From positions 1 through 32,460 of the forward strand of contig JAGQYU010000067.1 in assembly GCA_020435885.1 (NCBI GenBank): a stretch of 32,460 nt of DNA, read 5' to 3'. Made by a program: the position numbers and the translations under genes. The notes below the pieces were generated by a model. That model searched no databases and was not told where the DNA came from. It was given only the letters and a program-made list of their open reading frames with translations. How positions within the stretch are numbered: position 1 is the stretch's first letter; each line of letters begins with the position of its first letter. This DNA is from Flavobacteriaceae bacterium (lineage in GTDB: Bacteria > Bacteroidota > Bacteroidia > Flavobacteriales > Flavobacteriaceae). This document shows, in pieces, positions 12,913-31,852 of this stretch.

Positions 12913-15569
<2,657 letters not shown>

Positions 15570-15621
15570 AATTTGTCCTTTGTACATAATGATTTTTATC
15601 AAATGTAGTTTATGCAAAAAT

Positions 15622-15651
15622 AAAAACTCCTGACAATTATCAGGAGTTTTT
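15622..15651 (-). terminator. Intrinsic terminator after the porin gene
   Basis: AAAAACTCCTGA-CAATTA-TCAGGAGTTTTT. Confidence 0.85.
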
Positions 15652-15677: not shown

Positions 15678-16730
15678 TTAGAACTTAACTTGAACTTGCA
15701 TTAACAAGGCACTGTCGTAGCTGCTAACACCAGGTTCAACGTAGTATTCATAGTTAAGTTGCACTCTTGTTTTATCGTTAAAGAAGTAATTCAAACCAAA
15801 GGTCATTAATTCTTGGTATCCTAATATTTTGGTATCAAGGTCTGCATCAAAATATTCATATTTGAATACTGGGTGCAATTTACTGTCTTCAGGAGCATAC
15901 CAAGCCATTAGATAGGCACCTTGTCTTTGTTCTCCTAATTCCATTGGAGTTGATCCGCAACCACCTTCTGCAGCTCTGTTATAATCACCTTCATCATGGA
16001 TATATTCACCTTGTAAGTTAAAGCCTTTGTAGTTTAACTGAGCTTCAAAACCGTAAGTAGTACGATCATTATCATCATTGTTTGGATATCCGTAACGGAA
16101 GCTGGCACCCACTGACATAAAGTCGAACAATTTATAATTGGCACGTCCTATAACGTCTTTTTTATTGTTGTTGTCTTTAATTCCTAATCCTCTACCATTC
16201 ATTAAAGCTAATGCATAACGGAACTTATCATTTTTACCAAGTATTGTTGCTCCGATGTCTCTTTGAGGAGATACTAATTGATTAGAAACGATTGATCTGT
16301 TAATAGTTGTTAAGCCATGGCAAGGAGTTTCTACTTCTAAACCAAAAGGTTGTTTGAATGAACCCATAGAAACTTTAAACATATCACTTTTTGTATAGGT
16401 TACAAAAGCGTCTAATAAGTACACATTACCGTCAGAAGCGATAAAATCACTAGCTTCTAGCATTACATAGTAAGAAAAACTACGGCTAACTTTACCACGT
16501 ACACCTAAACGAGCTCTTTTAAAGTAGAAAGAGTTGTCATTGTCAGGATCAGCAAAATGATAGTCATATTCAGGTTGAAAGAAACCGAATACTACTGGAG
16601 TCATATTATTTGCTCCGGCAGCAGCGCCACTTGCTGGAGCAGCATCATCCTCACAACCTTGAGCAAAGGAATTTGTAGAAAATAATAGAGAAACTGCCAG
16701 AGCAAATAGAAATATTATTCTTGTTTTCAT
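15678..16730 (-). CDS. Outer-membrane porin, OprO/OprP (anion-selective)-like, with three Cys
   Basis: Signal peptide ending SFA-Q, FKRARLGVRG, LLDAFV, GSFKQPFGLE, amphipathic beta strands, terminal VQVKF. Confidence 0.85.
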   Translation of the reverse strand: MKTRIIFLFALAVSLLFSTNSFAQGCEDDAAPASGAAAGANNMTPVVFGFFQPEYDYHFADPDNDNSFYFKRARLGVRGKVSRSFSYYVMLEASDFIASDGNVYLLDAFVTYTKSDMFKVSMGSFKQPFGLEVETPCHGLTTINRSIVSNQLVSPQRDIGATILGKNDKFRYALALMNGRGLGIKDNNNKKDVIGRANYKLFDFMSVGASFRYGYPNNDDNDRTTYGFEAQLNYKGFNLQGEYIHDEGDYNRAAEGGCGSTPMELGEQRQGAYLMAWYAPEDSKLHPVFKYEYFDADLDTKILGYQELMTFGLNYFFNDKTRVQLNYEYYVEPGVSSYDSALLMQVQVKF

Positions 16731-16749: not shown

Positions 16750-16830
16750 AAAGCCCTAAAAACGATCGATTCTGGAATAAAAACATTATTAACTATTATA
16801 TGGATAATGCTAATGTGTTTTTAGGGCTTT
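16750..16830. repeat. 14-bp perfect inverted repeat enclosing 53 nt in an intercistronic region
   Basis: AAAGCCCTAAAAAC (16750-16763) and GTTTTTAGGGCTTT (16817-16830). Confidence 0.8.
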
Positions 16831-16847: not shown

Positions 16848-17843
16848 TTATTGAACTAACGGTAAAGATTTAGGTTTGCTATCAACTCCCCATTGGTTAC
16901 TTGAAAATGCACTATTGGAGTTGTACATACCATTCATACCAAAAGTTAAGCTATAGGCGTCATAACCTAGTACTCTTAAACATGCTGTAACCACAGCAGA
17001 AGTTTGTCCTGTATAACAATAGGTAACAACTTTAGCTTCAGGGTCTAATCCTCTATAACTGTTATCAGCTAATGTTAATGGATTGATTCTGTAAGCTCCA
17101 TTGATGTGGCCAAAACCAGTATAATCAGCAGAACTAAAGAAGTTGTTTATAAAGTAATTATTTGGGCTATTTAAGACATCTGTACCTTTAACAGTTTTGA
17201 AGCCTTCTTGCACAGCTAGCTCAACACGGCTTTTTAAAATATTTTCTCCAATTGTTGATAAACTAGATATTTCTGGATCATCATATACATTGTTTGATGG
17301 GGCTGCACCGTATGACCAATTTGCATGGCCATTAGCTTCATTACCAACAGCATTGTTCCATGCATAAGCAGTATTTTCATTCCAACCAGACATACCCCAT
17401 TTCAATGCTTGAGTGTTAGAATAACCATACATACGCATCAAAGCAGTTGCATAACATGCAGTTTGTCCTGTATAACAAACAACCAAAGCTGGTTTACCGG
17501 CAGCTTGTGCAGCAGCACCTTCAGTAAGAATATTAGCAAAAGCTACATTCTTAGCTCCAGCAATATGTCCTTTAGTTGTAAAATCAGCCGCACTTCTAAT
17601 ATCAATTATATAGTATTTGTTTAAGAAAGCATCTAGATCAGCATCAGCTGGAGCTCCAGCGACAAAGTTTATACCATTGTTTATTACTTTATTGATATCA
17701 AGATCATTTGTTATCATATAATCTTTCATGGTTGTAAACGCCGGTGTAATAGTAGTTTCCGGTGTATCACCTTGATCACATGATGTTAAGAATAGTGAAG
17801 GAATCAGTAAGAGTCCTATTAAGATTAAATGTAACCTTTTCAT
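16848..17843 (-). CDS. Tandem-domain rhodanese (sulfurtransferase) lipoprotein
   Basis: Lipobox LTSC; IIDIR..GHIAGA and GHINGA; two active loops CYTGQT. Confidence 0.9.
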   Translation of the reverse strand: MKRLHLILIGLLLIPSLFLTSCDQGDTPETTITPAFTTMKDYMITNDLDINKVINNGINFVAGAPADADLDAFLNKYYIIDIRSAADFTTKGHIAGAKNVAFANILTEGAAAQAAGKPALVVCYTGQTACYATALMRMYGYSNTQALKWGMSGWNENTAYAWNNAVGNEANGHANWSYGAAPSNNVYDDPEISSLSTIGENILKSRVELAVQEGFKTVKGTDVLNSPNNYFINNFFSSADYTGFGHINGAYRINPLTLADNSYRGLDPEAKVVTYCYTGQTSAVVTACLRVLGYDAYSLTFGMNGMYNSNSAFSSNQWGVDSKPKSLPLVQ

Positions 17844-17888: not shown

Positions 17889-18878
17889 TTATTCTACTAC
17901 TGGGAAATTTTTGATCTCGTCTTTAGAGAAACCATTCCAGCCTTTTTCTACTAAAGTTTTGTTCATATAACCATTAGCACCGTAGGCTAAATTGGCTACG
18001 TCATAACCTAGTACTTGTAAGTAAGCTACTACATAGGCTGCATGTTGCCCTGTTAAACAATTAACAAGAACTTTTTTATCAGTAGGTAGTGTATAAAGAT
18101 CTTCAGTTGAAGAAAGAGATTTATTCGGTTGATATAACACGGCACCTTTAACATGGCCTGTATTATATTGTTCTTCATTCATATAATTTACTACATAGTA
18201 ATCTGATGGATTTTCAACAGCTACATCAGGGTTTACAACAAATTCTTTATAAGGTTTTGCAAAAGCTTCAACTATGCGTTGTTGTAAAATATCTTTAGCC
18301 TCTGTTTTACCGGTGTTTATTGTAGGAACATTTCCTTTTTCAGGCATTGGATTTGCAGTAGTTTCTAATTTATCTGAATAATCATTTGCAGTATTTTTTG
18401 TCCAGATGTTTGCTGCAAAATCATCAGCCCAAGAGCTCATTCCCCATTTAAGGTTGTATACGTTGTTATATCCGTATAGTCTTAGTAAACTGGTGTAGTA
18501 AGCTGCTGATTGACCTGAATAACATACAATAGTAATTTTATCGTATGCAGTTGGGTCAATTTCATTTTGAAAATACTCTAGTAATTTTGGGCCTTCTACA
18601 TTTTTAGCATTTTTAATATGTCCGTAAGAGAACCAGCTATCGCTTCTAATATCAAGAACTAAATATTTATCATTCTTAAGATTATCTTTGATCTCTTCTG
18701 GAGTAATAATGGCAGGAGCCATATCACTATTGATAAAGTTTCCGTTTGCTTCAAGATAGGCAACTAATTTTCCAAATTCTGAAGTAGGATCTACATCCTG
18801 TTGTTGTATACTTTTAAAACCGCTGAATACTACAGCAGCCATAAAAAGCAAGATAAAATATGATTTAATGTTTTTCAT
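17889..18878 (-). CDS. Exported tandem-domain rhodanese (sulfurtransferase)
   Basis: N-terminal signal/anchor; LDIR..GHIKNA and GHVKGA; active loops CYSGQS and CLTGQH. Confidence 0.9.
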   Translation of the reverse strand: MKNIKSYFILLFMAAVVFSGFKSIQQQDVDPTSEFGKLVAYLEANGNFINSDMAPAIITPEEIKDNLKNDKYLVLDIRSDSWFSYGHIKNAKNVEGPKLLEYFQNEIDPTAYDKITIVCYSGQSAAYYTSLLRLYGYNNVYNLKWGMSSWADDFAANIWTKNTANDYSDKLETTANPMPEKGNVPTINTGKTEAKDILQQRIVEAFAKPYKEFVVNPDVAVENPSDYYVVNYMNEEQYNTGHVKGAVLYQPNKSLSSTEDLYTLPTDKKVLVNCLTGQHAAYVVAYLQVLGYDVANLAYGANGYMNKTLVEKGWNGFSKDEIKNFPVVE

Positions 18879-19147: not shown

Positions 19148-19176
19148 AAAAAACTGCTTCTAAGAAGCAGTTTTTT
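19148..19176 (-). terminator. Intrinsic terminator ending the psr operon
   Basis: AAAAAACTGCTTC-TAA-GAAGCAGTTTTTT. Confidence 0.88.
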
Positions 19177-19194: not shown

Positions 19195-19806
19195 TTAACA
19201 ACCACCTTCAACCGGCAGTTTTTTCTTTTTCTTAACCGGAACAACTTGTTTAACCGGAGCAGGTTTTACTTCTTTTATAACAGGTTTTGCATTAGCTTCT
19301 TCAGCTTTTTTAACACTGTTATCAATAAAACCTTTTATATCTGCCACAGCAGTTTCTATGGTGGCAGGTTCTGTAATTAATTTATTATGGTCATAACTGT
19401 TTTTAACAGCCAAAACCTTTACATTACTATAACCTAGCTGGCGTAAAAGTATTAACGGAGTAACGGCATCATTAGGAGTATTTCCATAAAGAACTATGTT
19501 ATCCTTGGTTTTGAATACATTAATAGATTCATCTGTTAACAAATCAGTAACAGGGATATTAATAGCTCCCTCTAAATGGCCTTTTTCATATTCATATTGA
19601 TTTCTAATATCAATAAGCTCAGTGCCTTCAGTCACATCTTTTTGGGCAATAATATAAGTATCTGCTGTTAGCTCAGTAAGTGCTTTTTTTGTGTCAACAA
19701 CATACATGTTTTTGGGTCTTTTAAAAGATAAGATACCAACAAGTACTACTAGTATGGTTAATACAGCAGCTATAGATATTCTTTTAGTTTTTTCTAACTC
19801 TTTCAT
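19195..19806 (-). CDS. Membrane-anchored rhodanese-fold protein lacking the catalytic Cys, with C-terminal GGC tail
   Basis: N-terminal TM helix; LIDIR..GHLEGAINIP; active-loop position IVLYGNT has no Cys; only Cys is the last residue. Confidence 0.85.
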   Translation of the reverse strand: MKELEKTKRISIAAVLTILVVLVGILSFKRPKNMYVVDTKKALTELTADTYIIAQKDVTEGTELIDIRNQYEYEKGHLEGAINIPVTDLLTDESINVFKTKDNIVLYGNTPNDAVTPLILLRQLGYSNVKVLAVKNSYDHNKLITEPATIETAVADIKGFIDNSVKKAEEANAKPVIKEVKPAPVKQVVPVKKKKKLPVEGGC

Positions 19807-19883
19807 AAAAGTCTATTTTTTAAGTTTACTTAACAACCTCCTTCAACGGGTAGTTTTTTCTTTTTCTTAACCGGAACAACTTG
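19195..19883 (-). repeat. 54-nt direct repeat (19195-19248 and 19830-19883) encoding QVVPVKKKKKLPVEGGC-stop
   Basis: 51 of 54 nt identical by manual alignment; all three differences are synonymous third positions. Confidence 0.95.
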
Positions 19884-20495
19884 TGTTGGAGCTGCTTTTT
19901 TAGGTTCAACTTTTACAGGTTTAGCCACTTGATCCGGATAGGCAACACCAAAATACATACTGGCTGCTTTTCTAGTATTATACAACTCAAAATCATTTGC
20001 AGGCATTTCTTCTGTTGGCACAGGAGGATTTATAATAGTGCTGTACCACTCATTTACACCACCTTTTAACACTTTAAGATTTTTGTATCCTAAACGGTTA
20101 CCAAACATCCATGCCTGGTCTGCATAAAAATTATCATCAGAAATAAATACTACGTTATATTGATCTTGATTGATATAAGATTTGTTATCATCGTCTAACA
20201 ATTTTGCTAACGGAATATTTACTGAATTAGGAATACTATATTTTGTAAAATCATCTTCACTTCTAACATCTATCAATAAATAAGAAGGATCTTGATTGAT
20301 AAGTACATCTGCTAATTTATCTGTAGAGATATATCTCTGTGGATTAATAGCATTACTCAACAGTTTTTCAGGAACAATACCTTCATGTTTTTGATATTTT
20401 GGCAACAGTACCAATCCGGCTGCCAAAAGAATAAAAATGGCTGCCAAAATCATATATCTGAATGAAAGTACTTTTACTACATTTCTATTTACCAT
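19830..20495 (-). CDS. Second membrane-anchored rhodanese-fold protein lacking the catalytic Cys, with identical C-terminal GGC tail
   Basis: N-terminal TM helix; LLIDVR..SIPNSVNIP, LKGGVNEW; active-loop position VVFISDD has no Cys; only Cys is the last residue. Confidence 0.85.
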   Translation of the reverse strand: MVNRNVVKVLSFRYMILAAIFILLAAGLVLLPKYQKHEGIVPEKLLSNAINPQRYISTDKLADVLINQDPSYLLIDVRSEDDFTKYSIPNSVNIPLAKLLDDDNKSYINQDQYNVVFISDDNFYADQAWMFGNRLGYKNLKVLKGGVNEWYSTIINPPVPTEEMPANDFELYNTRKAASMYFGVAYPDQVAKPVKVEPKKAAPTQVVPVKKKKKLPVEGGC

Positions 20496-20512: not shown

Positions 20513-21103
20513 TTAATAGAAGACTTTTTTGACCCTTTTACGGATTTGGTCTGACAAAGCAAAAATTACTACAGCTGCTACTGTAAGTATAAATACAAAC
20601 CAATAAGGAGAAACTCCTAACGAATCCATTAAAGTTATATTACCTTCAAAATATCCGTTATAAATTGGTTCGAATAGGGTGTAAGCTTCTGAAAAGATAA
20701 ACACACCTATCATTATACCTAAGACATAAATCATTGCATCAATTTTGCCAATGGCAACTGCACATAGGCTGGTTCCGGGGCAAAAACCTCCGGCAACAAA
20801 TCCTACACCCATAATAGCTCCGCCAATAATGGCTCCCCATAAATAAGTTGGATGAATGTATAGTTTTGAAATATCTAAATATCCTAGATAATCCATGTAT
20901 AAAAGTCCTATAATGGCAGTCAAAGCAGCAGTAAAGAATACTTTAAGAACGGCAAAGTCGTATCCGTAAAATACTCCGGCAAGTTTTCTTGAAGATGAGA
21001 ATCCTGACGATTCTAAAATAAACCCGAAAGCTATACCTATTATTATTGCGATGACGTTGTTCCATTCATAGGGAATGATATCATTTGGAATTAATGGTCC
21101 CAT
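20513..21103 (-). CDS. YeeE/YedE family sulfur-compound transporter half-protein
   Basis: GIAFGFILE, GGAIMGVG..GGFCPGT motif, multiple TM helices. Confidence 0.88.
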   Translation of the reverse strand: MGPLIPNDIIPYEWNNVIAIIIGIAFGFILESSGFSSSRKLAGVFYGYDFAVLKVFFTAALTAIIGLLYMDYLGYLDISKLYIHPTYLWGAIIGGAIMGVGFVAGGFCPGTSLCAVAIGKIDAMIYVLGIMIGVFIFSEAYTLFEPIYNGYFEGNITLMDSLGVSPYWFVFILTVAAVVIFALSDQIRKRVKKVFY

Positions 21104-21124
21104 ACTAATAGTTGTTTATTATTT

Positions 21125-21655
21125 TTAAATCCAGTTTTTTCTAAAGAAATACGCTACTAAATACCCAGTGCCAAATATGGCTAGCATGGTTATAAAACCT
21201 CCGGTTGAAAGTACGGCCATTCCGCTAAGAGCGGCACCACTTGTACATCCGCGGGCAATTTGAGCTCCTAAGCCAAATAAAACACCACCACCAAGAGCAA
21301 ACCAAAGTCTTCTTCTGCTAGTTATTTTTGGTGAATGTTGTACTCTCCAACCAATTCTTCCTGCTAAACCACCGGAAATGAAAGCACCTATCAATACTCC
21401 CAAAGTTTCTAATACTAACCAGTTATTTAAAGTTGACTTGTCATCATCAATAAATTTGCTGTAATAAGCATTCTTTTCGGCATGCTCAGGAGTTACAGTA
21501 TCTACAATAGCAACCACACTACTTTTCATGGCTCCACTGGCACCTAAACCTCTACCGGTTATATAAAAAGTAAAGATGATTAAGATACCGAGCAAGAAAC
21601 CACCAAAGTAGGGGTTCCAGTATATGTGTTTATTTTGTTCTTTATGATTTTCCAT
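21125..21655 (-). CDS. YeeE/YedE family sulfur-compound transporter half-protein
   Basis: GLGASG, GGVLFGLGAQIARGCTSG motif, multiple TM helices. Confidence 0.88.
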   Translation of the reverse strand: MENHKEQNKHIYWNPYFGGFLLGILIIFTFYITGRGLGASGAMKSSVVAIVDTVTPEHAEKNAYYSKFIDDDKSTLNNWLVLETLGVLIGAFISGGLAGRIGWRVQHSPKITSRRRLWFALGGGVLFGLGAQIARGCTSGAALSGMAVLSTGGFITMLAIFGTGYLVAYFFRKNWI

Positions 21656-21668
21656 AATAATCTTCAGT

Positions 21669-22610
21669 TTAATATAAATATCTGGTTATTTGTCCGGCTT
21701 CTACCATTACAAATCTAAATACCAATCCGCCAATTAAAACCAATATAGCAGGGATTGCTACCGGCACTTTAAAGCCTACAAGTTCTGTAAGTTCCATAAC
21801 AGCAGGAACTAAAAGGCCTAGTATTACTACAAAGCCAAAGAACATCAATGTAAATTCTCCACCTACCAATAATTGCATAGCTTCCAATTGTACTTCAGAA
21901 CCTGCATACATACCCATTAGCATGTGTATGATAAGCCCAAGTTCTACAATAATTAAAACCAAGTCAATTTTACCAAACAGGTGTTTTTCTTTAGCTGTTT
22001 TAGCCATTAAGATGATGGCTGCAGCCCCAGTTGAAAGCCCCGATGTTAAGAATAAAGGTCCTAAAATAGCATTGTTCCACAATGGACGTGCATTGAATGC
22101 TGATAGTAAGATGCCAGTATAAATACCCAATACTATTGATAATGGTATGAAAGCCATTGCCATATACTTTCTGTTCTTAGCTAAAAATGCTTCCAGTTTT
22201 TGAAACCAATTGAATTTGATGTTCCATTTAGGGAACATTTCTTTCCAATAACTAATCACCCATAAAAATGACATAGGTGTAGTTACCAATAATACCCAAG
22301 CACCCCAAGACATTGGCGATTCTATACGTACAGTCATGTACAGTTGCCAAGCATATAAAGGATGTTTAAGGTCATAAATCAATGCCAATAAACCTAAAGA
22401 TAGTGCTATAGGAGGTATAATAGAGGCATATTTAACTACTGTTGGATATTCTTTATCCTTTTCCATCAAAGTGATTATGGCCATAAAGAATAATAATCCG
22501 GCAGCCAGTCCACCTAAGAATAGGTAAACTGATATAGGCCAGTGCCAAATCTCTAAAGACGGATCTATATGAGGAATGTTTCTACCGCTTGTAAAAAGTT
22601 CTTCTTGCAT
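21669..22610 (-). CDS. psrC: Polysulfide/thiosulfate reductase membrane subunit, NrfD/PsrC family
   Basis: WHWPISVYLFLGGLAAG, SPMSWGAW, YTGILLS..RPLW; about 8 TM helices. Confidence 0.9.
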   Translation of the reverse strand: MQEELFTSGRNIPHIDPSLEIWHWPISVYLFLGGLAAGLLFFMAIITLMEKDKEYPTVVKYASIIPPIALSLGLLALIYDLKHPLYAWQLYMTVRIESPMSWGAWVLLVTTPMSFLWVISYWKEMFPKWNIKFNWFQKLEAFLAKNRKYMAMAFIPLSIVLGIYTGILLSAFNARPLWNNAILGPLFLTSGLSTGAAAIILMAKTAKEKHLFGKIDLVLIIVELGLIIHMLMGMYAGSEVQLEAMQLLVGGEFTLMFFGFVVILGLLVPAVMELTELVGFKVPVAIPAILVLIGGLVFRFVMVEAGQITRYLY

Positions 22611-22624
22611 GATCTAGTTGAATT

Positions 22625-23158
22625 TTAAATTAAATAAAATACATGAGGTTTAGTACCTGCTTCGGGTGCTAATGTTTTCCATGTTCTGTTTTTCAGTAAT
22701 TGAGAGACTTCACTGTTAGGATCGTCTAAATCACCAAAATACATACACTTGGTTGGACAAACGGATACACACGCAGGTTGCTGACCTTTCTCTACTCTAT
22801 GATGGCAGAAGGTACATTTATCAACATATCCTTCAGGGTGTGAATAACGTGCATCATAAGGGCAAGACTGTATACAAGCACCACAACCAATACATTCATT
22901 GGGGGTTACTAAAACTATTCCGCCTTCAACAATGTGGCTGGCGCCTGTTGGGCAGCATCTTACGCAAGGAGCGTTGTCGCAATGGTTACACCTTTCGGAT
23001 TTTAGTTCTAATTCTACATTTGGATAAGCACCGTTAACGGTTTCTGTTATCCAGTCTCTACAATATCCTATAGGTACATTATTCTCTGTTTGACAAGCAA
23101 CAACACAATCGCTACATCCAACACATTTAAGTGTGTCTATTACCATTGCATATCTCAT
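22625..23158 (-). CDS. psrB: Polysulfide/thiosulfate reductase 4x[4Fe-4S] electron-transfer subunit
   Basis: CVGCSDCVVAC, CNHCDNAPCVRCCP, CIGCGACIQSCP, CTFC..CVSVCP; ATGA overlap with psrA. Confidence 0.92.
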   Translation of the reverse strand: MRYAMVIDTLKCVGCSDCVVACQTENNVPIGYCRDWITETVNGAYPNVELELKSERCNHCDNAPCVRCCPTGASHIVEGGIVLVTPNECIGCGACIQSCPYDARYSHPEGYVDKCTFCHHRVEKGQQPACVSVCPTKCMYFGDLDDPNSEVSQLLKNRTWKTLAPEAGTKPHVFYLI

Positions 23159-25401
23159 ATCGCTGTATTTTTGTTTGGATTTTCAGTTAAAAACTTAACA
23201 AAGTTACCTCTCATACCTGTTCCTCCCATCAATGGGTCTATGGTAACTTTTGTAATTAGGTGGGTATCATTGGCGCCTTTTGCATAAGCTCTGGAAAGCT
23301 TTTTGTTGTTATGCCCAAAACCATGATACATATAAACGGAATCCCAACGGATACGTTCGGTTACCCTTACTTTGATTGGGAATGTAGATATAATACCGTC
23401 TTGATTTTCTAACCAAACTTCCTGACCATTTTTAAGTCCTTCAATTCTTGCAACTTTAGGGTTAACCCAAAGATTGTTCTCATCTTTCAAGTCATTTAGG
23501 TTAGGGTTATTGATGGTTCTACTGAATGTATGCATTGGAGAACGCCCGTAATTAAGCCTGTAAAAACCTTGAGCGGGTTGCTCATGAGGTGTATAAACAG
23601 GCATAGGATCGTGTCCTAATGATTTTAATTTTTCTGAATAGAACTCAATTTTTCCTGTTGGAGTTGTAAACTCATAATCTTGACCATCAGTTAAATACAT
23701 AGGGCCAGATTTTCTTTTGAAGTTCTTAACTCCAATTTTTTCCATTTCTTCTAATGAAGTTCCCATTTGTTCTAACTGCCAAGCTATTACTTCTTTATAA
23801 TCATTATAGTTGAAGTATTCTCCTAAACCAAGCTTTTCACCAATTTGTTTAGATATCCACCATGCAGGTTTAGATTCAAATCTAGGTTCTGCAGCAGGCA
23901 TCCTCAAGGCAATAGAAGGTTCTCTATTAGTAGAAGAGCGGATACCATCATAGCGTTCTAAATAAGTACATTCTGGTAATACCACGTCAGCATAACCGGT
24001 TATTTCCATTGGCATGGTATCCATAACAACCATAAAATCTAATGACTCTATAGCTTTTTCAATAACCTCACGTTGTGGAACGGTACTTACTAAATTAGTA
24101 CCTGCAACAAACCAGCCTTTTATAGGATGTTCTTCATTTTCACCAGGAATGGTAGCTTTTATAACTTCATTGGTAATACCCATTTGTGCTAACGGATATT
24201 TTTCACCAATTTGTTCCCATCCCCACTTAGGAGTTGGATAAGGTGGATGTGGGAATGAAGGTACTTTTATACTTTCTTTAAAGTAGAAACCACCACGTCT
24301 TCCCCAAGAACCTAGTAAACCATTTAATATGGCAATAGCTCTTGAACGTTGCGTATCATCGCCGTACCATGTTACGTGTCTTCCAGGATGTACAATTACT
24401 GATGGAGCAGCGGCGGCCATAGATCTGGCAGTTCTTCTGATATCATCAGGTTTTATAGTTGTAATGCTGTAAGCCCACTCAGGGGTGAAAGTTCTGACAT
24501 GTTCTTTTAATTGATCAAAACCATGTCCGTATTTTTCAACATATTTTTTATCGTATAGTTCTTCATAGATCAATACATGCATCCACGAAAGTAGTAAGGC
24601 AATATCAGTAGCAGGTTTAATAGCTAACCAATATTGTGATTTACTGGCCGCTGTTGAAAAACGAGGGTCTACAGTTATAATGGTAGCACCGTTGTCAATA
24701 GCATCAGACATTTCTTGTACTTGGGTATTGTGCATGTTTTCGCCAATGTGGGAACCGATTAGCACCAAACATTTGGTATCTCTAATATCGGTTGGTTCTG
24801 GTGAACCTACCCAAGAACCGAAAGTTAATCCGAAACCGGTTTCTCTTGGTCCTCTACATTGTGCGTAAGCAGGCTCAGCAACGGTATCAGAACCGTAAGC
24901 TTGGAACAAATGTTCTAAGTGGCTTCCGGGTGATCCGTGTTTAAGTAATGCCATACTTTCAGCACCATACTTGTCTTTTATTTCCTGCATTTTAGAAGCA
25001 ACCAATGTAAGGGCTTCTTCCCAGCTGGCTTCTCTAAAAGTTTCTTCACCGTCAACGGTTGTTCTGATTAGAGGTGTTTTTAAGCGGTCATTGTCAGAAT
25101 ACATTCCTACTCCGCCTGTTCCTCTAGGGCATAAACGACCATTACAGTGTGGGTCAGATTCGTTTCCTATTATTTTTTGAATGTTGTTATCTTCATCAGT
25201 GTAAGCCCAAGCAGCACACTTCCAGAAACATACTTCGCAATAGGTTGCTGATCTTTTTAAGTTTTTTGTGGCATTTATTAATCCTTTTTCGGTTTTAACA
25301 GAAAAATTATTTCCTAATGCATTTAGTGCGGGAGTAGTCAAAGCTAAACCCCCAGCACCTAGTGCTGAAATCTTAATAAATGTTCTCCTTGAATTATTCA
25401 T
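23155..25401 (-). CDS. psrA: Mo-bisPGD catalytic subunit of polysulfide/thiosulfate reductase (PsrA/PhsA clade)
   Basis: Tat signal SRRTFIK; FS0 motif CEVCFWKC..C; Mo-ligand region AQCRGPRE and PGRHVTWYGDDTQR resembling Thermus thermophilus PsrA. Confidence 0.88.
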   Translation of the reverse strand: MNNSRRTFIKISALGAGGLALTTPALNALGNNFSVKTEKGLINATKNLKRSATYCEVCFWKCAAWAYTDEDNNIQKIIGNESDPHCNGRLCPRGTGGVGMYSDNDRLKTPLIRTTVDGEETFREASWEEALTLVASKMQEIKDKYGAESMALLKHGSPGSHLEHLFQAYGSDTVAEPAYAQCRGPRETGFGLTFGSWVGSPEPTDIRDTKCLVLIGSHIGENMHNTQVQEMSDAIDNGATIITVDPRFSTAASKSQYWLAIKPATDIALLLSWMHVLIYEELYDKKYVEKYGHGFDQLKEHVRTFTPEWAYSITTIKPDDIRRTARSMAAAAPSVIVHPGRHVTWYGDDTQRSRAIAILNGLLGSWGRRGGFYFKESIKVPSFPHPPYPTPKWGWEQIGEKYPLAQMGITNEVIKATIPGENEEHPIKGWFVAGTNLVSTVPQREVIEKAIESLDFMVVMDTMPMEITGYADVVLPECTYLERYDGIRSSTNREPSIALRMPAAEPRFESKPAWWISKQIGEKLGLGEYFNYNDYKEVIAWQLEQMGTSLEEMEKIGVKNFKRKSGPMYLTDGQDYEFTTPTGKIEFYSEKLKSLGHDPMPVYTPHEQPAQGFYRLNYGRSPMHTFSRTINNPNLNDLKDENNLWVNPKVARIEGLKNGQEVWLENQDGIISTFPIKVRVTERIRWDSVYMYHGFGHNNKKLSRAYAKGANDTHLITKVTIDPLMGGTGMRGNFVKFLTENPNKNTAI

Positions 25402-25685: not shown

Positions 25686-27554
25686 GTGAAAGTTTTAAAG
25701 AAAGAAGTTTTGCCGTTTTTGATGCTTATCGTTGTGATAGGAGCCTACTTTATTTTTAGAAATGTAAAGTTAACTGATGCTGTTTTTAAAGATGGAGATA
25801 ATTATTCTTCGGTAAAAACTGATAAAGAATCTTGTTTACAATGCCATGCTCAGATGACGGGTTTTTCAAAATACCATGATCCAAACAATATTGGATGTGC
25901 AAGTTGCCATTTAGGCGATATAAATTCTACAGATAAAGATGAAGCACATAAAGATATGGTGCTTATCCCCGGGAATTTATCTGATGCAGAAAAGACTTGT
26001 GGTAAGTGTCATATCAATGAACTCAAAAAAATAAATACTTCGTTAATGACAACCAATAGTGGTATTGTTGCAGTTGATAAATTCATTTTCGGTGAGGCGG
26101 ATTCGCCAAATTATCACTACCATATAAAAGATATACAACAATCCCCGGCTGATAAACATCTGCGAGATCTCTGCGCCAATTGCCATTTAGGGGCAGAAAA
26201 AAAAGAATTTGGAGGCATAACGGAGCTGAGTAGAGGAGGCGGTTGCAACGCTTGTCATTTAAACTATTCTGAAAGTGCTACAAAAGGTTTGGCAGAATAC
26301 TTAAGCTCTAGCAAAAAGGAGTTGCCAAAAGTACATCCGTCCACAGATATTTTTGTAAAGGATGAGCATTGTTACGGTTGTCATAGCCGTTCTAGCAGAA
26401 TTTCTACTAATTATCAAGGCTGGTACGAAACACTATTGGATGAAGAAGATGTTGTTGGAGATACAAATTATAAAGTGGCTGAAGATAAACGTGTGTATGG
26501 TTTTATGGGGGAAGATGTGCATCATGCAAAAGGGATGCTATGTATTGATTGTCATTCTTCACATGAAGTGATGGGAGATGGAAAAACTTACACACACGAG
26601 GAAGATGCTGTGCATGTACAATGTTCTGATTGTCATATAAAAGAAAAACCAAACACATTGTCATATAACGAGTTAGATACAGAATCGTCATTGGTTTTTT
26701 TGCATAGAGATTATAAACATACCGATAAGCAACTACTTAAAGTTAAAAAAGACGGACATCCTTTGGTGAATACATATTTGGATGAAGATGGTGAGCTGTA
26801 TTTGCTAAGCAAAAAGGATGGAACAAAACATTTAATAAAAAAGCAACCTGATGTTTGTGCCAGAGATGTGGCTCATTCTAATGTAACGTGTGCAGCCTGT
26901 CACTCGCAGTGGACATCCAGATGTATCGGCTGTCACAACACTTTTGATAAAAATGATAAAGGTTTTGATCTATTAGACAGAAAAGATATTACAGGCAAAT
27001 GGTCTGAGCATGTTTTTGAGTTTTCTGCAGAGAGGCCTGCACTTGGTGTACGGAAAGACAGTACAGGCTATACCATTGAACCTGCCGTACCGGGGATGAT
27101 ATTGACTATAGATCATCAAAGTTTTAGCGGAGATGTAAATGATAAAACAGCATTCCACAGATTATATGCGCCTAATTCTCCTCATACAACCAGTAAAGAG
27201 GTAAGAGATTGTAAATCGTGTCATGCAAATCCGATGGCAATTGGCTACGGAAAAGGAACGTTGCTTTATAAAGATGGAGTTTGGAATTTTACACCGGAAT
27301 ATGCTCAAAATCCAAATGATGGACTGCCGGAAGATGCTTGGGTGCCATTTTTAGAAGAGCCTAAAGCTAAAGTACTTTCTACAAGGACTAATTTTAAACC
27401 TTTTACTGTTGATCAACAGAAAAGAATTCTGTTGGTTGGTGCTTGTTTGCAATGCCATAAAGATGATTCTAAAGTAATGCAGCAAACTTTATATGAAGGT
27501 TTAGATGTGGTACTTAAAAATATAAGTAAACAATGTATATTGCCTAAACAATGA
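25686..27554 (+). CDS. Membrane-anchored multiheme cytochrome c (12 CxxCH motifs)
   Basis: GTG start, N-terminal TM helix, 12 CxxCH counted by eye; -7 element TAGTTTTG at 25656-25663. Confidence 0.92.
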   Translation: MKVLKKEVLPFLMLIVVIGAYFIFRNVKLTDAVFKDGDNYSSVKTDKESCLQCHAQMTGFSKYHDPNNIGCASCHLGDINSTDKDEAHKDMVLIPGNLSDAEKTCGKCHINELKKINTSLMTTNSGIVAVDKFIFGEADSPNYHYHIKDIQQSPADKHLRDLCANCHLGAEKKEFGGITELSRGGGCNACHLNYSESATKGLAEYLSSSKKELPKVHPSTDIFVKDEHCYGCHSRSSRISTNYQGWYETLLDEEDVVGDTNYKVAEDKRVYGFMGEDVHHAKGMLCIDCHSSHEVMGDGKTYTHEEDAVHVQCSDCHIKEKPNTLSYNELDTESSLVFLHRDYKHTDKQLLKVKKDGHPLVNTYLDEDGELYLLSKKDGTKHLIKKQPDVCARDVAHSNVTCAACHSQWTSRCIGCHNTFDKNDKGFDLLDRKDITGKWSEHVFEFSAERPALGVRKDSTGYTIEPAVPGMILTIDHQSFSGDVNDKTAFHRLYAPNSPHTTSKEVRDCKSCHANPMAIGYGKGTLLYKDGVWNFTPEYAQNPNDGLPEDAWVPFLEEPKAKVLSTRTNFKPFTVDQQKRILLVGACLQCHKDDSKVMQQTLYEGLDVVLKNISKQCILPKQ

Positions 27555-30814: not shown

Positions 30815-31852
30815 ATGAAAAAACACCAAGGAATTTCCAACAATATTTTAGACTTGGTTGGTGACACCCCCTTAATTAGGTTAAATAAGATCACAAAAAA
30901 GTTAGATGGACAATTCTTAGCAAAATACGAAGCCTTCAACCCTGGCCATTCTATGAAAGATAGAATAGCCATCCACATTGTAGAACAGGCGGAGAAAAAA
31001 GGAATACTAAAAAAAGGTAGTACGGTAATAGAAACTACTTCAGGTAATACTGGTTTTAGTGTTGCTTTAGTATGTATTATTAAAGGATACGATTGTGTTT
31101 TAGCTGTTAATTCTAAAGCCTCTAAAGGAAAGATTAATATGCTAAAAGCTATGGGAGCTAAAGTATATGTTTGTCCTGCGCATGTAAGTGCTGATGACCC
31201 TAGGTCATATTATGAAGTAGCTAAAAAGTTACATGCCGAAACAGCTGATTCTGTTTACATAAACCAGTATTTTAATGAACTGAATTCTGAAGCTCACTAC
31301 CTCTCTACCGGACCTGAAATTTGGGAACAAACTGAAGGTAAAGTAACACACGTAGTTGTTGCCAGTGGAACAGGAGGTACTATTTCAGGAATTGGCAAGT
31401 ACTTAAAAGAAAAGAATCCTAACATCAAAGTGTTGGGTGTTGATGCTTACGGGTCTGTATTAAAAAAATACCATGAAACTTCTGAGTTGGATATGAAAGA
31501 AGTATATCCTTACAGAATTGAAGGATTAGGTAAAAACCTGATACCTACAGCTACCAATTTTGAAGTAATTGATGTTTTTGAAAAAGTTACAGATGAGTCT
31601 GCAGCGCATAGAGCCAGAGAGTTGGCCTTTACTGAAGGGTTATTTACTGGTTATACAAGTGGCGCTGTATTACAAGCTACTTTCCAATATGCAGAAAAAA
31701 ACTATTTTAATAAAGATTCTGTTGTTGTTCTTCTATTTCCTGATCATGGTTCCAGATACATGGAAAAGATTTATTCTGATGACTGGATGAGAGAACAAGG
31801 TTTTTTTGATACACAAAAAATTGCTCAGTCAGAAGTAGAGTTTATAGAGTAA
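30815..31852 (+). CDS. PLP-dependent cysteine synthase/CBS-family enzyme, probable cysteate synthase CapA
   Basis: [12 protein letters not shown] lysine, TSGNTG, SGTGGT; adjacent to a CapB-like gene. Confidence 0.8.

Follow-up and report, generated by a model that had tools for sequence, protein, structure and literature searches.

The Pseudomonas outer-membrane phosphate porin OprP (PDB 2o4v), which with OprO (4rjw) has a basic constriction, binds phosphate centrally through D94, Y62, S124, S125, K121, K126, R34 and R133 (PMC5877670). In Geobacter sulfurreducens, the rhodanese lipoprotein ExtH precedes an OprP-like porin, ExtI, in a chalcogen-reduction cluster whose ExtKL/MccSep is a polysulfide reductase (PMC13510729). 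YeeE provides a precedent for three conserved cysteines (Cys) along a sulfur pathway (PMC7449682), and SoxY carries its GGCGG motif at the C-terminus (PMC6067878). For S0-using bacteria, the model of Rohwerder and Sand predicts outer-membrane proteins whose thiols take up sulfur as -SnH and carry it into the periplasm; the proteins of this model lack experimental confirmation, with Omp40, Omp44 and OprD-like proteins as candidates (PMC10045233). The presence of OprO/P-like porins close to sulfur reductases has drawn comment before, in the available text without a Cys model (PMC13490349). Here we describe a porin gene on a contig of 32,460 nucleotides from a Flavobacteriaceae bacterium (assembly GCA_020435885.1, contig JAGQYU010000067.1, positions 1 to 32,460 of the forward strand; the whole stretch is called the window). 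Its product belongs to an unnamed porin subfamily defined by three Cys (C26, C137 and C258), with a likely reactive Cys or selenocysteine (Sec).

The porin is similar to OprP and OprO in fold and basic constriction, where OprP R133 is kept as R145. It differs from them in its Cys-tipped N-terminal tail, its Gly-Gly-Cys (GGC) loop and its rhodanese context. It shares with the Geobacter system a rhodanese lipoprotein gene followed by that of an OprP-like porin, and an ExtM-like cytochrome nearby. However, the window porin scored 52 bits against the ExtI model (NF040900; 42-53 bits in all eight members scored, cut-off 150), ExtI has one Cys rather than three, and the rhodanese partner of the porin, RhdA, had no ExtH match at E 0.001. 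YeeE/TsuA and SoxT also have three conserved Cys from the outside to the inside of a membrane, Sec forms and sulfurtransferase partners. Unlike the present outer-membrane barrel, they have an inner-membrane helical fold with Cys ~7 Å apart, and non-covalent passage has been proposed for them. Two Cys of the porin sit on flexible arms that, judging from models, could close the distance. The porin did not match the YeeE/TsuA family (PF04143), which two neighbour proteins did. A sequence-only reading of the window had called the GGC loop SoxY-like. The resemblance is one of motif (Gly-Gly-Cys-Gly on a flexible segment, with neighbouring lipoproteins in distant loci ending in GGCGG) and not, on this evidence, of homology: the porin motif lies in an internal barrel loop and that of SoxY on a C-terminal arm. 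No SoxY profile matched the porin, and the window contains no sox genes. Outer-membrane thiols that would carry sulfur inward also recall the Rohwerder and Sand model. We found no published description of this porin family, with most subscription journals lying outside the search.

The porin matched Pfam Porin_O_P (PF07396; 62.3 bits, gathering cut-off 20.9). Two AlphaFold models, made from alignments of 120 and 21 sequences (mean predicted local distance difference test score, pLDDT, of 83 and 81), both predict 16 strands and a long loop 3. The best structural match was OprP 2o4v (Z 28.5, root-mean-square deviation 2.6, 291 residues aligned), followed by OprO (Z 28.4) and then by the next structure at 24.8. 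OprP and OprO were also the sole significant PDB sequence matches in a profile search, at ~20% identity. The nearest named relatives are from Lutibacter and other Flavobacteriaceae (51-66% identity). Both termini of porins are periplasmic and their long loops are external. On this convention, the models agree with the topology predicted beforehand: they place C26 on the periplasmic N-terminal tail, C258 in the external loop 6 and C137 in loop 3. The models and the OprP alignment are likewise consistent with an outside-middle-inside order of C258, C137 and C26.

Translation of the gene showed that these three are the sole Cys, encoded at the positions first stated by TGT (C26), TGC (C137) and TGC (C258). 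All three occurred together in 118/120 close relatives; of the remaining two, one was cut at the N-terminus and one had Phe at position 137. They were also present in 81/81 sequences from the window and loci L001-L080, in 27/27 sequences down to 36% identity, and in 120/120 sequences from a second, more distant profile search (two already in the earlier set). We then defined a set of 183 unique full-length matches of at least 250 bits, from loci up to L253 (214 matches, 203 full-length). It held 173 porins with all three Cys, nine with TGA in place of the C258 codon, and one without any of the three. This last member is a second porin copy in locus L142 (4921-6042), a tandem paralogue on a long branch that also lacks the GGC loop and offers a natural negative control. 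In an outgroup of 103 more distant full-length porins (P0147-P0269, at least 290 residues), the GGC loop motif was absent (0/103) and an N-terminal QxC was present once (1/103). At the C137 column of the outgroup, Cys was not among the eight commonest residues, which account for 97/103 rows. Because the three Cys are all-or-none across the family, they define a subfamily and were gained or lost together. Poor conservation, one of the outcomes named in advance as refuting a role for the Cys, was thus not observed. A second ExtI-like porin of the window's genome (partial) had no Cys in 279 residues. Other Cys patterns occur in loop 6: the distant porin P0148, without the loop-3 Cys, has a CC-x3-C cluster there, and P0130 has three Cys.

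C258 lies in a loop that had been read as EGGCG. The G-G-C-G core was conserved and the Glu was not (Gly in 94, Glu in 15 and Asp in 11 of 120). The spacing from C258 to G271 varied between 13 and 20 residues. The pLDDT near C258 was low (62 and 46 in the two models), with low confidence at residues 253-259. We observed an in-frame TGA aligned to the C258 codon in 11 related loci, whereas the window gene itself has TGC. The 11 cannot be counted as independent cases (L146 is almost identical to L210). In three metagenome loci (L164, L146 and L158) the frame stays open beyond the TGA to a normal C-terminus, and in a fourth, partial one (L155) read-through runs to the contig end. Among 401 sampled Bacteroidales genomes, 53 had the porin and six of these had a single in-frame TGA, always at the C258 codon. 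selB scored above cut-off in 6/6 TGA genomes compared to 6/47 other porin genomes, one of the 47 with a partial gene (Fisher P = 4e-5, which is overstated since kin are not independent). A seventh TGA genome (G850), found later and with an N gap in the gene, also carries selB, giving 7/7. selA was found in 5/6 TGA genomes and 6/47 others. At least five Cys/Sec changes were needed on a FastTree tree of 106 sequences, for which Flavobacteriaceae were thinned and L155 and G850 left out. In a simple test for selenocysteine insertion sequences (SECIS), hairpins followed the TGA in 10/10 tested loci, without setting them apart from Cys genes by energy or a loop G (figures below).

From these sequences, the TGA at the C258 position likely encodes Sec in some relatives. 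A changed genetic code was considered for the TGA loci and rejected: each gene has one TGA, at the same codon, and other long open reading frames (ORFs) of L164 end in TGA. Sec functions are redox functions, and Cys/Sec pairs mark redox-active Cys (PMC2673044). Because Cys alternates with TGA in selB-bearing genomes, C258 appears to be reactive rather than structural, and a stable structural C137-C258 disulfide, another outcome named in advance, is unlikely. The Cys/Sec exchange is the strongest argument for C258 reactivity. We found no selA in the window's genome (87% complete), and no TGA forms in the family of genome G401 (porin in 7/12) or of G130 (porin in 4/101). Likely Sec members of the porin family appear in databases as proteins ending at the GG before UGA. 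Members from Calditrichia and Cloacimonadota (P0280 and P0207/P0420) both end at the GG before the C258 position. The porin family thus extends beyond Bacteroidota, and these members, known from proteins alone, are possible further Sec forms.

C137 aligned gap-free with OprP S125, and R145 with OprP R133, in a profile alignment. Its surroundings are fixed in spacing, with 11 residues from K126 to C137 in 181/182 sequences and eight from C137 to R145 in 181/181, and the pLDDT near it was high (87-88 in the two models). The eight-residue phosphate site of OprP is reduced to R133 (as R145), a pattern that does not indicate OprP-type function. S125 is replaced by Cys and Y62 by Arg; R34 by Tyr or Phe; K121 and K126 of OprP are lost, S124 is variable, and Leu occupies the D94 position, followed directly by an invariant Asp. 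The basic residues of the constriction were nearly invariant (R72, 181 Arg and 2 Lys; R74 and K126, 183/183; R145 and R157, 182/183). The same basic residues were common in the Cys-less outgroup (66-85 of 103), so the new feature of the family is the Cys and not the charge.

C26 was examined as a possible lipidation site. A lipobox has the consensus [LVI][ASTVI][GAS]C directly after the hydrophobic region. C26 stands in A-Q-G-C, with an invariant Gln and small residues at -1 and -3 before it, and from this sequence we rejected lipidation; this refuting outcome, too, did not occur. The invariant Gln24 instead fits signal peptidase I cleavage, which in Bacteroidetes exposes Gln at the mature N-terminus (PMC5837995), and C26 is the third residue of the predicted mature protein, as first read. 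Relatives show the variants Q-C, Q-L-C and Q-A-C. At least two acidic residues follow within six positions of C26 in 151/182 sequences, and the distance from C26 to G49 ranges from 12 to 27 residues (182 sequences). C26 lies in a low-confidence tail (pLDDT below 50 over residues 17-40, or 14-40 in one model). The tail had been described as an Ala/Gly/Pro-rich tether, which holds in this lineage; elsewhere, composition and length vary.

The constant partner of the porin is RhdA, a double-rhodanese lipoprotein. rhdA stood directly upstream of the porin gene in 170/170 family members with enough flank (12 more were too short to judge), and not directly upstream of the Cys-less L142 paralogue. Cys-less outgroup loci gave a weak rhodanese match in 1/38 cases. 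An RhdA match at E 1e-58 or better, a limit set post hoc, was present in 51 genomes: 49 had an intact porin, and in the other two a gapped or broken porin copy lay alongside. Split porin ORFs stand beside an intact rhdA at L254:6931-7817 and L175:9959-11093, either as pseudogenes or by assembly error. RhdA C123 and C276 were kept in 74/74 sequences, and C119 of its paralogue RhdB in 70/70. RhdA is doubled to ~625 residues, with four rhodanese domains, in loci L162, L170 and L255 and genomes G630, G853, G746 and G771, three Sec-porin genomes included.

Acidic residues after the lipid Cys act as a lipoprotein export signal in Bacteroidetes (PMC5080379). At least two such residues were present in 117/119 RhdA sequences with a lipobox compared to 1/19 short lipoproteins with GGC or GGCGG tails. 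By this rule RhdA is predicted at the surface, whereas the tailed carriers are predicted to stay inside. Proteins encoded nearby repeat the GGC motif at their free C-termini, in many cases as GGCGG; the lipoprotein rhodaneses of distant loci end in GGC or GGCGG. In the window, the EGGC end was kept in 49/50 matches of RhdC and 49/53 of RhdD, the other four being shorter, different rhodaneses. A porin-RhdA complex prediction, with RhdA run without an alignment, gave 0.02 compared to a mark of 0.32, which is no evidence either way.

A link of the porin to psr as such did not hold: psrA was found in 35/53 porin genomes, whereas rhdA was next to the porin in all family members with enough flank, and we rejected psr as the defining partner. 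psrA was also present in 83/348 sampled genomes without the porin. Psr occurred in 39/52 loci of at least 15 kb in the close group. Among 27 such loci of the distant group, nine had Hdr-like genes alone, six had Psr, four had an octaheme reductase (two also with Psr) and ten had none of these sinks. Nine distant loci also carry TusA and DsrE. Because the sink varies by genome, the porin-RhdA pair seems to serve various sulfur-handling systems as their front end. The pair lies beside TusA, DsrE and HdrA-like genes in L137, L154, L164, L238-L240, L245, L248 and L252; L137 additionally has YeeE, MvhD-like and QmoC-like genes. Such loci represent a sulfur module of the Hdr/Qmo-like kind in Bacteroidota. 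The porin occurs in named isolates of Lutibacter, Maribacter, Polaribacter, Algibacter, Maribellus and Carboxylicivirga. In a phylum-wide sample, the three-Cys type was present in 2/400 genomes besides the window's own, among the 30 best loci inspected; the remaining inspected loci had Cys-less porins. In 17/18 porin-less genomes examined, a paralogous double-rhodanese lipoprotein adjoins a multiheme cytochrome of 450 residues (L256-L273) with ten CxxCH motifs and ~24 Cys in full-length copies (for example L259:6926-8284 and L265:2992-4344). Three of these cytochromes gave nothing above the NCBIfam cut-off. The lipoprotein and the cytochrome are possibly an alternative front end.

We propose, with an even chance of being right, that the three invariant Cys act as a persulfide relay across the outer membrane, from RhdA to C258, C137, C26 and then to periplasmic carriers. 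The persulfide chemistry, the order of transfer and the inward direction are what we infer from these positions and partners. Surface RhdA would load its two active-site Cys with sulfur drawn from polysulfide, S0 or thiosulfate. C258, whose reactivity is supported by the Cys/Sec exchange, would attack the RhdA persulfide and, on the flexible Gly-rich loop 6, dip into the outer vestibule. Sulfur would pass to C137, placed at the constriction by alignment, where the invariant R72, R74, K126, R145 and R157 would stabilise an anionic persulfide. The acidic N-terminal tail would enter the basic pore from the periplasm, and C26 would accept the sulfur for delivery to periplasmic rhodaneses and to the GGC-tailed carriers, which in turn would supply the genome's own sink: PsrABC in the window; an octaheme reductase or YeeE/TusA/DsrE/Hdr-like proteins elsewhere. 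In favour of a relay, the segments that carry C26 and C258 vary in length and are modelled with low confidence, and C137 is fixed.

Several observations weigh against this proposal. Since Sec forms occur at C258 and at neither of the other two positions, the support for reactivity covers C258 alone, and C26 and C137 could be a disulfide pair; Phe in place of C137 in one close relative also counts here. On the Sec assignment, six selB-bearing genomes retain Cys at C258, and in the SECIS test TGA and Cys genes could not be told apart by energy (-5.9 compared to -6.0) or by a loop G (5/10 TGA compared to 42/78 Cys genes). A loop position of 16-18 nucleotides was found in 7/10 TGA genes compared to 5/74 Cys genes, a clustering noticed post hoc. 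The placement of RhdA relies on an export-signal criterion that is a simplified proxy. Direct Cys-to-Cys transfer has been doubted for YeeE/SoxT, for which hydrogen-bonded passage or free polysulfide is preferred (PMC7449682, PMC11582611). The 83 genomes with psrA and no porin also count here, as polysulfide could cross an open porin with no relay involved, and 18/53 porin genomes lacked psrA by this query, with incomplete assemblies.

The relay shares the need for reactive thiols with two other explanations. The main rival, which we consider unlikely, is that C258 unloads RhdA at the pore mouth and C137 resolves it through a transient C137-C258 bond. Free HS- or polysulfide would then diffuse through the basic pore, with C26 re-reducing C137 or recapturing sulfur, and there would be no continuous covalent chain. 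The Cys conservation and the Sec data fit this equally, the pore keeps its basic constriction, and for SoxT the preferred alternative is short polysulfides in free form (PMC11582611). A free anion, however, would need no invariant Cys on both faces, and the acidic Cys-tipped tail and GGC-tipped periplasmic neighbours suit protein-bound hand-over. Distinctly less probable is that a disulfide moving along C26-C137-C258 carries reducing equivalents outward to sulfur on surface RhdA, so that sulfur never enters the cell, or that the chain exports sulfane sulfur. An odd three-thiol chain could move a disulfide, Sec suits a terminal reductant, and the cytochrome that replaces the porin beside the rhodanese lipoprotein in porin-less genomes looks like an alternative for electron delivery. 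But the identified neighbours comprise sulfurtransferases and, as inward sinks, Psr, octaheme reductase and YeeE/TusA/DsrE/Hdr-like proteins, and the window's cluster holds no thioredoxin or DsbD gene, a search that was confined to this cluster.

The thiols might instead guide thiosulfate or polysulfide through S-H...S contacts, or gate the pore according to redox state. For YeeE, three essential Cys are proposed to work by hydrogen bonds (PMC7449682), and YeeE too has Sec forms (PMC13188914), so Sec is no proof of covalent carriage. We nevertheless regard this as improbable, given that two porin Cys are on floppy arms rather than fixed at 7 Å intervals and that the porin is tightly coupled to sulfurtransferases. 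Even lower is the probability we give to a structural or metal-binding role, in which loop 6 is tied to loop 3 by a stable disulfide, or the three thiols form a site for a metal or metalloid. The periplasm and cell surface are oxidising, and all-or-none conservation fits a shared site. This is opposed by the repeated Cys/Sec exchange at C258, by the variable spacing around C258 and C26 and the poorly modelled stretch at C258, and by the predicted location of the Cys on opposite faces. Equally improbable is a pore for selenite or tellurite uptake, the role proposed for ExtI and ExtH in Geobacter. The gene logic is shared (PMC5877670) and there are weak ExtI and ExtM profile matches, but the ExtI score is far below its cut-off, the Cys number differs, the neighbours are sulfur enzymes, and 41/53 porin genomes and the window's own genome have no Sec machinery.

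The porin gene is the last of a same-strand run that comprises psrABC, a split YeeE pair, two EGGC-tailed rhodaneses, rhdB and rhdA (Table 1). PhsA was the best NCBIfam match of the Psr complex (497 bits, below the cut-off of 694), and each YeeE/YedE half has one invariant Cys. The hairpin between rhdC and rhdB suggests that rhdB, rhdA and the porin gene form a separate unit. The long hairpin between rhdA and the porin gene could set the ratio of RhdA to porin. Four RNA runs gave small shares (0.05-0.19), and their contigs covered 26, 13, 3 and 16 of 30 bins; contigs cannot show transcription. The middle of the porin gene was scarcely covered, and no inference on expression or habitat was drawn.

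Table 1. Coordinates in the window of the porin gene, its Cys codons and the neighbouring features.
Feature	Position	Strand	Description
Porin gene	15678..16730	-	350 residues; predicted 16-strand OprO/OprP fold; three Cys; C-terminal Phe
Predicted signal peptide	16662..16730	-	Residues 1-23; S-F-A, then invariant Gln24; signal peptidase I type
C26	16653..16655	-	Third residue of predicted mature protein; variable-length acidic tail, predicted periplasmic
C137 in loop 3	16320..16322	-	Loop 3, residues 127-156 (16263-16352)
C258 in GGC motif of loop 6	15957..15959	-	Loop 6, residues 249-267 (15930-15986), predicted extracellular
Terminator-like hairpin directly 3' of porin	15622..15651	-	z -3.9
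Long hairpin, rhdA-porin intergenic region	16750..16830	-	z -3.9; 0/200 shuffles
rhdA	16848..17843	-	Double-rhodanese lipoprotein; lipid Cys22 followed by acidic stretch; predicted surface-exposed
rhdB	17889..18878	-	Double-rhodanese paralogue without lipobox; predicted periplasmic
Terminator-like hairpin between rhdC and rhdB	19148..19176	-	z -4.5; 1/200 shuffles
rhdC	19195..19806	-	Rhodanese fold; N-terminal hydrophobic segment; sole Cys ends Lys/Pro-rich tail (EGGC)
rhdD	19830..20495	-	Second tailed rhodanese-fold protein; sole Cys last; EGGC end
Split YeeE/YedE sulfur-transport pair	20513..21655	-	Halves 21125-21655 and 20513-21103
psrABC	21669..25401	-	psrA 23155-25401, psrB 22625-23158, psrC 21669-22610; Psr/Phs-type molybdoenzyme complex

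Further genes lie around this run. A Crp/Fnr regulator is encoded downstream of the porin gene (14916-15617), and a crp-like gene was present in 68/80 close loci; Crp/Fnr-like ORFs were also seen by eye, with no scan made, upstream in many distant loci. A divergent ExtM-like multiheme cytochrome gene (25686-27554; 253 bits, cut-off 800) was present in 39/80 close loci. The cysteate synthase gene capA (30815-31852; 613 bits, cut-off 600) has no relation to the cluster.

Porins are regarded as passive, and a pore that holds a reactive thiol or selenol would therefore mean new transport chemistry. For the step by which bacteria take elemental sulfur or polysulfide through the outer membrane, this porin family is a concrete candidate, in which three residues are named, the partner is fixed and the Cys/Sec exchange provides a natural control. 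The available text of a 2026 review of the prokaryotic selenoproteome does not contain the word porin; its outer-membrane entries are an MtrB/PioB-like protein and a TonB-dependent receptor (PMC13188914). A weaker outcome than a relay would still add a selenoprotein family not found in that text. Our fullest reading, which we hold tentatively and slightly below even chances, is that of a first covalent-transport porin. A three-station persulfide relay (Cys or Sec in the outer loop, Cys at the constriction, Cys in the periplasmic tail), fed by a surface rhodanese, would complete a chain in Bacteroidota that keeps sulfur bound to proteins all the way from the cell surface to reductases of the periplasm or cytoplasm. 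The Sec forms would be an undescribed outer-membrane selenoprotein family. If sulfur transfer is indeed covalent, the porin family would be categorically new.

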